Assembly: GCA_965249275.1 (NCBI GenBank)
Contig: CBDFLQ010000007.1
Coordinates: 64,001-128,000, forward strand
Source of the DNA: Dehalococcoidia bacterium
GTDB taxonomy: Bacteria > Chloroflexota > Dehalococcoidia > Plut-88900
Length of the DNA stretch: 64,000 nt
Direction: 5' to 3'
Below, in pieces: positions 46,694-48,617 of this stretch (within the stretch, counting starts at the first letter, position 1; every line of letters starts with the position of its first letter). The position numbers and the translations under genes were made by a program. Below the pieces are notes generated by a model. It did no database searches. It was not told where the DNA came from and saw only the letters and a list, made by a program, of their open reading frames with translations.

Positions 46694-46723
46694 TTGACTA
46701 ACCTAGTACACATATTCTATATT
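46694..46723 (+). promoter_or_regulatory. promoter of the terminase pair with LexA-like box
   Basis: TTGACT-18-TATATT; AGTAC-ACAT-ATTCT (46705-46718) matches 8/10 of AGAAC-N4-GTTCT. Confidence 0.5.
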
Positions 46724-46806
46724 GCACTCCAACTCGGGCCCGCATAAGGGCCGGGCCCCTTGCCGAAACCAACTGAATTGCTGAAAAGACCGAAAGGAAC
46801 TGCCGT

Positions 46807-47220
46807 ATGACCAAACGACCCCGCTACCCCTCCCGGACCCCTAAGCCCGATTCAAGTGGCCCTTGGGAAGACTCGCTCGATCAGGCCGGCCTCCCCGGTG
46901 GCCCCTATTACTCCGCCAGGCTTAGTAATCTCGAATCGAGACAAAGACTTGGCCGAGCTTCCAAAGTCCAGGGCGTTGACCAGGAACTCGCTATCCTCCG
47001 CTGGCGCCTTGAGGAATTGATTGCCAAGGAAGACAACAAAGAAACCAAAGACCACTCCCTAGTGCTCAAGACCATCGAACTCATAGTTCGAGCCTACTCC
47101 GCCAAGGCACGCTCCTCCGACGATTCCAACGCCCCCACCGAAAAAGGCATCGAAAACCTTCTGCGGGACGCCTCTCGCAAGTTCGGACTAAAGACAATCC
47201 CCTGGAACTCCACCCACTAG
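46807..47220 (+). CDS. putative terminase small subunit-like protein
   Basis: 137-aa helical protein (GVDQELAILRWRLEEL), AAGGA RBS, ends 8 nt before TerL; function inferred from size and position. Confidence 0.55.
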   Translation: MTKRPRYPSRTPKPDSSGPWEDSLDQAGLPGGPYYSARLSNLESRQRLGRASKVQGVDQELAILRWRLEELIAKEDNKETKDHSLVLKTIELIVRAYSAKARSSDDSNAPTEKGIENLLRDASRKFGLKTIPWNSTH

Positions 47221-47228
47221 AGAACGCC

Positions 47229-48617
47229 TTGATAGACATTTATTCCCTAAGGCCCTACCAGCTGCAGATAGCCAAAGCTATACTGAGTAGCGTTCAGGAC
47301 GGCATGGGCTTCTCCTTCTCCGTCATGATCGCCCGTCAGGGCGGCAAGAACGAGCTCTCCGCCTGGCTTGAGGCCGTCCTCCTCTCCGCCGCCTCCCACG
47401 ACGGCGGCAGCGCCATCAAGGCCACCCCCACCTTCCACCCCCAGGCCCGGATCAGCATCTCTCGCCTCCAGGACACCCTTCGGCGCAGCCGCATCTATTA
47501 TGAATTCCAACACGGCAACCTCTTCGCCGTAGGCCGCGCCCGCCAGCTCTTCCTCAGCTCCCACCCCACCAGCAACGTCCTCGGCAACACCGCCAGTCTC
47601 CTCCTCGAGATCGACGAGTCCCAGGACGTCTCCCCCGATAAATTCAACCGCGACTTCATGCCTATGGGCGCCTCCTCCAACGCAACCACCGTCCACTACG
47701 GCACCGCATGGGACGACCATTCCCTCCTCGAGCAGGTCAAACAGTCCAACCTCGATCTCCAACGCACCGACGGCATCCGTCGCCACTTCGAGTTCGACTG
47801 GCAGGCCGTCGCTCGCTACAACCCTCACTACAAGCGCTACGTAGAGGCCGAACGTCTCCGGCTCGGTAGCGATCATCCATTGTTCCGCTCTCAGTATTGC
47901 CTGGTTCCCGTGACCGGCAAAGGAAGGTTCATCGACCATAACAGGCAGGCCCTGCTGCGGGGCAGCCACCTCCGAATCAGCGCCCCCGTCAAGGGGCGTA
48001 CTTACGTCGCCGGCGTAGACCTTGCCGGCGAGTCCGAACAGTCGGACAACCTCCAGTTCAAAGCAAACGCACCATTTAAGGATTCCACCGTCGTCACCAT
48101 CGGAGAGCTCCGGTCTACGAACGCCGGTCACGGGTCCCCGCTCCCATCCCTTAGGGTGGTCGAGCACTTCTGGTGGACGGGACTGCCCCAAACCGAGAAT
48201 TTCTCGCGTCTCCTCCACATCCTCTCGGAAGTCTGGGGCTGTCGCAGAGTCGTCGTCGATGCAACGGGCATCGGAGCAGGCGTCGCCGATTTCTTGCGCA
48301 AATCTATCGGGCCTTCCATCGTCAAGCCCTTCACCTTTACCGCCCGCAGCAAATCGGACCTCGGCTTCGACCTCCTCGCCGCCATCAACTCCGGCAGGCT
48401 CAGGATGTACAAGCCCGACGGCTCCCCCGAGTCCACCGAGTTCTGGTCCCAAATCTCCAAAGCAAGGAGGACCGTAAGACCCAACCAGACCATCAACTTC
48501 TTCGTAGACCCCTCCCAAGGCCACGACGACTTCCTGTCATCCCTCGCCCTCCTCGTCAAAGCCTCCGAATACATCCCCCGCCGCGCCTCCGGTCGCCTGC
48601 GAGAGGGCTATGAATAA
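47229..48617 (+). CDS. phage-type terminase large subunit
   Basis: LRPYQ, Walker A ARQGGKN, Walker B LLEIDE, motif III GTA; nuclease motifs AGVDLAG, VVDATGIG and HDD. Confidence 0.88.
   Translation: MIDIYSLRPYQLQIAKAILSSVQDGMGFSFSVMIARQGGKNELSAWLEAVLLSAASHDGGSAIKATPTFHPQARISISRLQDTLRRSRIYYEFQHGNLFAVGRARQLFLSSHPTSNVLGNTASLLLEIDESQDVSPDKFNRDFMPMGASSNATTVHYGTAWDDHSLLEQVKQSNLDLQRTDGIRRHFEFDWQAVARYNPHYKRYVEAERLRLGSDHPLFRSQYCLVPVTGKGRFIDHNRQALLRGSHLRISAPVKGRTYVAGVDLAGESEQSDNLQFKANAPFKDSTVVTIGELRSTNAGHGSPLPSLRVVEHFWWTGLPQTENFSRLLHILSEVWGCRRVVVDATGIGAGVADFLRKSIGPSIVKPFTFTARSKSDLGFDLLAAINSGRLRMYKPDGSPESTEFWSQISKARRTVRPNQTINFFVDPSQGHDDFLSSLALLVKASEYIPRRASGRLREGYE

Follow-up and report, generated by a model that had tools for sequence, protein, structure and literature searches.

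A Candidate Spare Terminase Pair for a Vertically Inherited, Gene Transfer Agent-Like Head and Packaging Module in Dehalococcoidia

A Terminase Pair in a Dehalococcoidia Chromosome

Two adjacent genes of a Dehalococcoidia bacterium are the subject of this report. They lie in a 64,000-nucleotide (nt) stretch of DNA, referred to here as the window, which covers positions 64001-128000 of contig C7 in assembly G000 (2.9 Mb, 7 contigs, 87% complete). The second gene is predicted to encode a catalytically competent large terminase (TerL) of 462 amino acids (aa), and the 137-aa product of the first is predicted to be its dedicated small partner. With high confidence, the two are considered a functional terminase pair of a head and packaging module that appears to be vertically inherited. 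The window copy is probably a spare pair for that module, which is gene transfer agent (GTA)-like; production of GTA-like particles filled with DNA is proposed with moderate confidence. The evidence comprises the integrity of the genes, the fold of the large protein, conservation of its motifs, purifying selection, a class-wide occurrence in line with taxonomy, and, in relatives, a link to portal and capsid genes. The pair and its promoter are as follows.

46680-46723, + strand: promoter cassette (sequence and promoter scan), GTGACACGAACCCATTGAC overlapping a -35 element TTGACT (46694-46699), then an 18-nt spacer and a -10 element TATATT (46718-46723)
46807-47220, + strand: small open reading frame (ORF), 137 aa, ATG start
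47229-48617, + strand: terL ORF, 462 aa, TTG start

The ORFs share the same orientation, are separated by 8 nt, and contain no internal stops by ORF calling. The promoter of the pair (TTGACT-18-TATATT, 46694-46723) matches at 10 of 12 positions in the promoter scan. It is one of two promoter-like sites between 46400 and 49100, compared with a mean of 0.4 in shuffled sequence; the second site, a perfect consensus, belongs to rpmH (48839-48867). An earlier note on this DNA had described an ORF pair free of frameshifts, with intact TerL motifs and a promoter of its own, and that description holds.

The Large Terminase

The 462-aa protein is identified as TerL because its AlphaFold 2 (AF2) model is of high confidence (predicted local distance difference test score, pLDDT, 93), the fold matches terminases in the Protein Data Bank (PDB), and all ATPase and nuclease motifs are kept. 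The two predicted domains are marked by the following residues.

N-terminal ATPase of the additional-strand, catalytic-glutamate (ASCE) type: Q11, Walker A R36-N41, Walker B D129-E130, coupling motif G158-T159-A160
C-terminal RNase H-like nuclease: D264, D285, D344, H432-D433-D434

The corresponding motifs are LRPYQ (aa 7-11), ARQGGKN (35-41), LLEIDE (125-130), and GTA (158-160) in the ATPase, and GVDLAG (262-267), DATG (344-347), and HDD (432-434) in the nuclease. From general knowledge of terminases, we take these to hold the adenine-binding glutamine, the Walker A and B motifs, the catalytic glutamate, the coupling motif, and the nuclease acids. In an alignment of 64 diverse homologues with a mean column identity of 33%, residues Q11, R36, Q37, G39, K40, E130, Q132, D133, T159, D264, D285, D344, and H432-D433-D434 are invariant or at least 90% conserved. 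The ATPase residues R36, Q37, G39, K40, D129-E130, and T159 reach this level of conservation in the 64 sequences and are identical in all 16 copies compared, and the catalytic residues are identical across all 12 copies from the genus of the window (g1).

The AF2 model (pLDDT 93.3; predicted template modeling score 0.83) was compared with PDB structures using Foldseek. It matched the large terminases of D6E (7e-17), HK97, Sf6, T4, and T7 and, for P74-26 and G20c, structures of the ATPase or nuclease domain alone. All listed matches down to an E value of 2.6e-5 are terminases or terminase domains, without exception. The modeled ATPase domain matches those of P74-26 and T4 in fold, and comparison with the G20c nuclease gives a target-normalized TM score of 0.76-0.78. 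The model and its matches thus point to a terminase and not to an unrelated helicase or nuclease, an outcome that the earlier note had left open.

Among sequence searches, a profile of the TerL family matched the P74-26 and G20c nuclease domains in PDB (5tge, 5m1f) at 3e-8 to 1e-7. The family profile was needed, as the single TerL sequence returned chance matches only. PHROG TerL families match the window protein weakly (2.6e-6 to 2.5e-4), and neither Pfam, including its terminase models, nor NCBIfam gave a match at threshold. PF17289 is assigned to a few TerL homologues in precomputed annotation.

The Small Partner Protein

The 137-aa protein is termed TerS-like by position only, because among 45 loci of other families, 40 have a homologue directly upstream of terL in the same orientation. 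Its AF2 model (pLDDT 66.8) has a basic, disordered N-terminus followed by five helices, and alignment of homologues reveals a conserved core, FY...GLDxEIAxLRxRL...IELxIRAYSA. The nearest named cluster in the Atlas is T5 TerS (score 0.83), which is a weak lead only, and a single homologue reached phrog_1889 (E=0.014). Two runs of complex prediction for TerL with the small protein scored 0.00; they were made without controls and are evidence neither way.

TerL Distribution and Inheritance

TerL homologues are widespread. A word-indexed search returned 4003 proteins at E≤1e-3 among 8000 candidates scored, and an exhaustive search returned 2041 cluster representatives at this threshold, 448 of these at ≤1e-30. 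Homologues with 55-58% identity occur in metagenome-assembled genomes named Dehalococcoidia, Dehalococcoidales, and Chloroflexi, many on Mb-scale contigs. The class was surveyed in 251 genomes, namely G000 and genomes at least 90% complete (one, G214, is unpublished). A TerL match is present in 184, mostly one per genome, while certain families have none, such as f22 (0/16) and f24 (0/10). Rather than occurring only sporadically within prophages, the homologues are mostly single-copy and chromosomal.

A tree of 47 TerL sequences was built from 45 loci of 15 families, the window copy, and one paralogue. Eleven of the 13 host families represented by multiple rows fall on one side of a branch. 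The exceptions are f41, which is divided by genus, and f34, which is paraphyletic to f1. Changes of host family label along the tree number 14, the minimum possible, versus a mean of 37.1 when labels are shuffled, and none of 200 shuffles was as low. Since the tree follows host families with the minimum of label changes, the TerL family in this class appears to be vertically inherited. The closest cultured phage by TerL is Bacillus phage vB_BboS-125, with ≤31% identity.

Portal, Capsid, and Other Head Genes in Relatives

In relatives, ORF clustering reveals a conserved gene order: the small gene, TerL, a 105-175-aa Cys-rich protein with a C-terminal helix-turn-helix (HTH), and a ~440-aa protein. 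The last of these is an SPP1-type portal, matching PF05133 at 3.6e-21 (76 bits, cut-off 25.5) and phrog_64 at 3e-30 to 6e-32. In one genome, the HTH protein scored 25.8 bits against the Mor activator family (cut-off 24.9). The ancestral layout is accordingly predicted as small gene, TerL, Mor-like HTH, and SPP1-type portal. The HTH gene is directly downstream of terL in 28 of the 45 loci, and a portal gene is ≤1.5 kb from terL in 27. The flanking genes seen in relatives are housekeeping genes, namely HIT and HD-domain genes and an extracytoplasmic function (ECF) sigma/anti-sigma pair. In family f1, the ECF sigma and putative anti-sigma genes are located between the portal and the head block (L019:3856-5473, L026:3980-5693, L029:4951-6350) and are a candidate host regulator of the module.

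The head block of relatives consists of a scaffold-like gene, a capsid gene, an SU10-type adaptor gene, and a gene for a ~660-aa protein. The capsid protein is of HK97 type (296 aa; phrog_212 at 1e-70 to 4e-76). The scaffold-like protein (142-194 aa) matched phrog_233 in one genome only, at 0.009, and the adaptor matched PF24175 at 42.2 bits in G156 (cut-off 27) and at about 25 bits, below cut-off, elsewhere. For the 660-aa protein, there was no Pfam family and no PHROG match in three of three homologues; its Atlas leads are Chloroflexota "phage tail protein" clusters and Sipho_Gp37 (0.93). Judged from these genes, the module would consist of the small protein, TerL, a Mor-like HTH protein, an SPP1-type portal, a scaffold-like protein, an HK97-type capsid, an SU10-type adaptor, and a 660-aa tail-like protein. 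The set appears to be vertical in chromosomes of the class and of some other Chloroflexota, often split over several loci.

Genes found between the capsid and the adaptor vary (L063:883-2305, L030:424-1583). For instance, G025 has a 228-aa Laminin_G_3 (ConA-like) protein, while G156 has a 350-aa protein with weak matches to minor-tail or fiber PHROGs. These extra genes may encode decoration or fiber proteins.

Each of five closed genomes has one PF05065 capsid match and one portal locus, the latter with a single PF05133 match in four genomes and two matches within one open frame in G004. Family f1 has the capsid block 3.6-11 kb from the portal, and in G037 the distance is 170 kb. All genes of the module form one co-oriented stretch in G025 and G156, although in G025 a gene on the opposite strand separates terL from the HTH gene. 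It is therefore plausible that they ancestrally made up one cluster of ~10 kb.

The capsid gene is present, in single copy, in 152 of the 251 class genomes and is 54-76% identical outside the genus. Of 30 families covered by both surveys, 21 have TerL and capsid, and four (f19, f22, f24, and f37) have neither. Discordant singleton families are f10, f21, and f31, and f29 and f32 show weak TerL matches (1e-4 to 1e-34). Capsid matches also occur, family by family, in 20 genomes of other Chloroflexota classes, with 45-54% identity. The closest cultured phages by capsid are Pseudomonas Ab18-like, Clostridium, and Streptomyces phages, at ≤41% identity.

A capsid-forming, satellite-like element could have a similar gene content. 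Such an element would depend on a helper phage and package its own or host DNA into tail-less or short-tailed capsids, as do the phage-inducible chromosomal islands that form capsids (cf-PICIs). The resemblance lies in a small terminase-like gene, TerL, portal, scaffold, capsid, and adaptor genes with no recognized tail tube, as in the module reported for cf-PICIs (10.1101/2022.09.08.507074), and in a Mor-like activator within the cluster. However, the nearest tyrosine recombinase (PF00589) to the module blocks of the five closed genomes is at least 41 kb away, the loci that carry the genes are as far as 170 kb from each other, and replication genes were not seen next to the TerL or capsid clusters of relatives. 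Moreover, the TerL tree follows host families and the capsid is 54-76% identical across the whole class. A satellite is decidedly unlikely on this evidence.

Genus-Specific Copies and Selection

Genomes of genus g1 carry 1-4 full-length terminase pairs, with four in G004 and G007, two in G000, G002, G005, G006, and G008, one in G003, and one plus a split copy in G001. In contrast to the multiple pairs, each genome has one portal-linked copy and one capsid gene (none found in G000). The split terL of G001 (C1:2970990-2972432) gives two matches that overlap, one over aa 2-204 and one over aa 184-462, and is probably a frameshifted copy.

The 12 TerL copies compared from the genus form one clade with 99/99 support. 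The locus seen in the window is occupied in seven genus genomes (G000, G004, G005, G007, G001, G002, and G008). Within three of these (G001, G002, and G008) terL is 3.2-4.8 kb from yidC, and the orientation of the pair relative to yidC is inverted in four of the seven. In the sister genera G010 and G011, pckA is ~1.1 kb from rnpA, with no ubiA, hypothetical genes, or pair between them. Because the genus copies form one clade and the locus is empty in two sister genera, the window locus is not ancestral, and comparison of these genomes identifies the window pair as a genus-specific extra copy. The earlier note had proposed a vertically kept packaging pair; this is upheld for the family within the class, but the window locus is a duplicate specific to the genus.

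The second pair of G000 opens contig C5. Its TerL is 77% identical to that of the window and is cut by the contig end at aa 440, and its HIT and HD neighbors are shared with the portal loci of G005 and G007. The pair is therefore stand-alone, as first described, at the window locus but not genome-wide, given this C5 pair and a solo small gene on C6. The latter, a third copy of the small gene (C6:411198-411691; 37-41% identical), has its own promoter cassette and downstream repeat, with no terL beside it. Between paralogous pairs, the small partners are only 34-42% identical, versus 72-78% for TerL.

The ratio of nonsynonymous to synonymous substitution rates (dN/dS) of terL is 0.29 against its syntenic orthologue in G005, at a dS of 0.12 that is like that of its neighbors, and 0.24-0.37 against five other copies. 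For the small gene, dN/dS against the G005 orthologue is 0.40. The terL values are not near 1, and by this measure the window terL is under purifying selection.

Copying, Repeats, and Promoter Cassettes

The pair also appears to behave as a duplicative unit in genus g1, as concluded from the proliferation of terL fragments and a recent duplication of a 2.4-kb unit. The duplicate, in G004, is 94.6% identical. It begins ~600 bp upstream of the small gene and stops 14 nt beyond the end of terL. Short G-rich direct repeats, which are common in g1 genomes, mark its boundaries, and no terminal inverted repeats were found at its ends. The proliferated fragments derive from one part of the gene.

47818-48320, no strand assigned: terL stretch (aa ~197-364), source of dispersed degenerate copies (blastn, tblastn, and alignment)
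L013:1014-1844 (G000 C6:946486-947316): example of the dispersed ~830-bp element, with others in L014, L015, L016, L012, and L017

G000 contains ~11 such dispersed elements of ~830 bp, with 76-89% nt identity and none in the window. Each has a promoter cassette, GGAG, and an ATG that begins an open frame of 246-409 aa; the central part of this frame is an in-frame, degenerate version of TerL aa ~197-364 with homology boundaries identical in every copy. The frame from the common ATG is open for 246-409 aa in all ten aligned copies, whereas 0-12 stops are counted in the six frames across the aligned stretches, whose start is upstream of the ATG. The encoded protein is considered unconstrained because the median pairwise dN/dS is 0.83. 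Partial TerL matches number 8-36 per g1 genome, compared with 1-4 elsewhere. It was considered whether these matches (aa ~194-373) represent a separate protein family; this was rejected, as they are P/R/S-rich translations of DNA repeats with a dN/dS of ~0.83.

An extended form of the promoter cassette, GTGACAC.A.CCC.TTGAC-N17-18-TATATT/TATTAT, occurs at 79 sites in the 2.9-Mb G000 assembly with ≤2 mismatches, including one at ~55539 in the window (C7:119539), and forms sub-families by downstream sequence. In G005, G007, and G011, it is also located upstream of the terminase pairs and of the head block alike. Because of its 79 genomic sites, the cassette is, as a sequence pattern, a common promoter type and not a mark of a pair-specific regulon. 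Repeats likewise follow the pair.

48617-48830, no strand assigned: GC-rich intergenic block from the terL stop to the rpmH promoter, with short multi-copy repeats (C-runs and hairpins; blastn and sequence)

Positions 48617-48800 of this block have dozens of blastn matches on all three large contigs. Its C-runs, for example CCCCCACCCCC, are similar to the motif that bounds the G004 duplicate.

These features invite the view that the promoter, small gene, and TerL (~2.4 kb) form a selfish unit that copies itself within the genus, the window copy being kept mainly by propagation. It would account for the 1-4 full pairs per genome, the G004 duplicate ending 14 nt past the terL stop, the flipped orientation relative to yidC in four of seven genomes, the ~11 neutral ~830-bp derivatives with identical homology boundaries, and the contig break inside the second G000 copy. 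Nevertheless, the locus is syntenic in seven genus genomes, terL evolves at a dN/dS of 0.24-0.37 with catalytic residues kept in all 12 copies, and the gene is single-copy and vertical outside the genus. In addition, the unit contains no transposase or integrase, and the ends of the G004 duplicate have only the common short G-rich direct repeat in place of terminal inverted repeats. Selfish copying as the main cause is, on balance, rather doubtful.

Neighboring Genes and Composition

By Pfam, the genes upstream of the pair encode GlmS, PEPCK_ATP (pckA), and a UbiA-family prenyltransferase, while those downstream encode L34 (rpmH), the RNase P protein, YidD, a PQQ-like propeller, YidC, and Jag. 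Neither Pfam nor PHROGs matched the 345-aa and 135-aa ORFs that lie in between, near the pair. The neighborhood given by the earlier note (pckA/ubiA, two hypotheticals, and the rpmH operon) is thus confirmed, the hypotheticals having no family. Rfam searches across the whole window found only four structural RNA genes, none of them in or beside the pair.

10608-10960, - strand: tmRNA
14340-14684, + strand: RNase P RNA
29539-29610, - strand: tRNA
59925-59997, + strand: tRNA

The GC content of the pair region is 0.60, in line with the rest of the window. G000 has five PF00589 integrase matches, none inside the window; att sites and serine recombinases were not searched for. In the five closed genomes, the nearest PF00589 match to the module blocks is 41-450 kb away. 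Because of this distance, the housekeeping flanks, and identities to cultured phages of only 31% (TerL) and 41% (capsid), the module does not appear to be an integrated prophage.

A related possibility is that the pair is the remnant of a decaying prophage in which stops have yet to appear. The lack of head genes in the G000 assembly, the lack of Pfam or NCBIfam matches to the pair, and the degenerate terL fragments in the genome would fit such a remnant. Opposed to it are a dN/dS well under 1 (0.24-0.37), invariant catalytic residues, synteny of the locus in seven genus species, a class-wide, single-copy, vertical distribution, and a GC content the same as that of the host. A remnant is extremely improbable in light of these data, in agreement with the preference expressed at the outset against a decaying prophage.

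Public Sequencing Runs

Public sequencing runs were examined as contigs only, and uncovered parts, differences in depth, and runs with a small share are uninformative in this format. One run has contigs identical to window positions 44878-48095. A run labeled "viral metagenome" has a 1638-nt contig over 46771-48395 with 66 differences, representing a ~96% identical relative of the pair. The same run also contains the rpmH-rnpA-yidD region (48857-49742) and cannot separate packaged DNA from cellular carry-over. A sponge metagenome RNA library has a 181-nt contig at 47757-47936 with five differences, which does not by itself demonstrate transcription. Contigs joining ~48743 to ~46669 were considered as a circular or tandem form of the pair; this was rejected, since both ends are multi-copy repeats that adjoin at other loci.

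Proposed Role of the Pair

If the pair serves a GTA-like module, the host would transcribe it from a strong sigma-70-type promoter, and the small protein would recruit DNA. Procapsids would be built from the one capsid gene, and TerL would dock on their one portal, its nuclease cutting the DNA and its ATPase pumping the DNA into the procapsid. The expected product would be DNA-filled, short-tailed, GTA-like particles. The 1-4 paralogous pairs per genome could act as alternative motors for one capsid, and their small subunits may differ in DNA choice, because they are far more diverged than TerL. A further elaboration holds that the module is an ancient, functional, minimal GTA of ~8 genes producing podovirus-like particles, with interchangeable terminase pairs in the genus that owe different packaging specificities to their fast-diverging small subunits, and with the promoter-bearing ~830-bp elements serving as dispersed recognition or initiation sites, or as regulators of these, so that packaging could start at many points of the chromosome. 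In this full form, the proposal is unlikely.

Several observations weigh against a role as a spare pair for such a module. A tblastn search with the proteins of relatives found no portal, capsid, adaptor, 660-aa, or HTH homologue on any G000 contig. The observation first made for the 64 kb, that portal, capsid, and integrase genes are missing, is therefore borne out and extends, for portal and capsid, to the whole assembly. The suggestion that head genes lie elsewhere in the genome holds for the chromosomes of relatives, where portal and HK97 capsid genes have housekeeping flanks and no nearby integrase, but not for the G000 assembly. Their placement in an assembly gap beyond the start of C5 is extrapolated from synteny with G005. 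Within the survey, the window TerL query found no match in 67 of the 251 class genomes and the capsid found none in 99. Tail tube, tape measure, protease, and lysis genes were not recognized among relatives' genes, in the absence of a search aimed at these, and the "tail" label of the 660-aa protein has the Atlas lead as its sole basis.

The small protein adds to these points. The earlier note had taken the two ORFs as a terminase pair, and the name TerS can be retained for the small one only as a positional label: the window protein matched no Pfam, NCBIfam, or PHROG family, its alignment profile found no TerS in PDB, its low-confidence model matched no BFVD fold at E≤0.001, and an HTH is not evident in the helical model. 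With respect to selection, five neighboring genes have a dN/dS of 0.01-0.16 and the 345-aa hypothetical 0.40, and terL is therefore looser than most. The spread of terL fragments and the recent 2.4-kb duplication fit selfish copying as well. Lastly, particle assembly, packaging, the kind of DNA packaged, and its transfer are all inferred.

Genus g45 (closed genomes of 1.4-1.5 Mb) presents a divergent layout, with the small gene and TerL divergent from the HTH gene and from two further matches, one to the portal, which is short (~260-280 aa), and one of ~410 aa to the 660-aa protein (L046:4309-8669, L047:4232-8666). This layout may represent a decaying or repurposed module. No capsid gene was found in three of three g45 genomes although TerL and the small gene persist, which is a further point against the proposed role, as the presence of TerL is evidently no guarantee of a capsid.

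Such cases raise the question of whether the terminase was co-opted for a host role other than packaging, for example as a DNA translocase or nuclease. Besides g45, in several families the pair has no adjacent portal; this applies to 13 of the 45 loci in the stretch fetched (f14, f40, f41-g70, L059 in f51, and L074/L075 in f30), some of them limited by contig ends. Yet TerL presence tracks capsid presence at the family level, the ancestral layout couples TerL to a portal, and the ATPase and nuclease motifs kept are both of the packaging type. Co-option is consequently very improbable, and a spare terminase pair for a GTA-like module remains the reading that we favor.

Comparison with Known Systems

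Dehalococcoidia are abundant in subsurface, marine, and host-associated habitats but hard to cultivate, so that little is known of how they exchange genes. The capsid gene, single-copy and 54-76% identical across the class, points to long-term retention of a phage head by its hosts, as do the portal and the terminase, the tree of the latter following the host families. If particles form, the module would offer a compact, ~8-gene model of a domesticated packaging machine, and several terminase pairs per one capsid would give a natural experiment on the evolution of packaging specificity. Capsid and portal peptides and DNase-protected host DNA are concrete targets for existing enrichments and viromes.

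At the protein level, the window TerL is like the large terminases of tailed phages (D6E, HK97, Sf6 gp2, T4 gp17, and P74-26/G20c) in its two-domain fold and motifs, while its identity to solved structures is low (12-18% among the listed fold matches). The Walker A motif usually ends in K-S/T. Unlike most terminases, the window TerL family has K-N at this position throughout. Relatives' proteins pass the cut-offs for the SU10-type adaptor (PF24175) and SPP1-type portal (PF05133), genes that are absent from the window and the G000 assembly.

At the system level, cf-PICIs are integrase-bearing mobile islands. They are reported to encode a packaging and capsid module (10.1101/2022.09.08.507074). 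Like them, the Dehalococcoidia module has its own chromosomal terminase, portal, capsid, and connector genes with no obvious long tail; unlike them, it has no integrase nearby, its genes are scattered, and its inheritance is vertical across a class.

To our knowledge, only a few independent GTA lineages are known. In the review by Kogay et al. (2022; PMC9662315), six features of GTAs are listed, including proteins derived from caudoviricetes, endogenized genes at multiple loci, and mostly vertical inheritance. Others are the packaging of mostly random host DNA, a full gene set too large for the particle to package, and delivery of DNA to cells. Caudoviricete ancestry (of TerL, portal, capsid, and adaptor), multi-locus endogenization, and vertical inheritance are seen in relatives, as known from genes alone; in the G000 assembly itself, endogenization is represented only by the terminase pairs.

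The module is therefore like GTAs of the RcGTA type (Rhodogtaviriformidae), as described in the same source, in having caudoviricete-derived head and packaging genes at several chromosomal loci, with no integrase beside them, and in being vertically inherited in line with host taxonomy (PMC9662315). It differs in its much smaller set of ~8 genes with no recognized tail tube or tape measure, in the 1-4 terminase pairs that accompany one capsid gene in the genus, and in belonging to a phylum with no GTA in the literature searched. That search, which did not extend to subscription journals and supplements, turned up no account of a system of this kind in Dehalococcoidia or Chloroflexota. On these likenesses and differences, the module is a candidate for a new GTA-like system.

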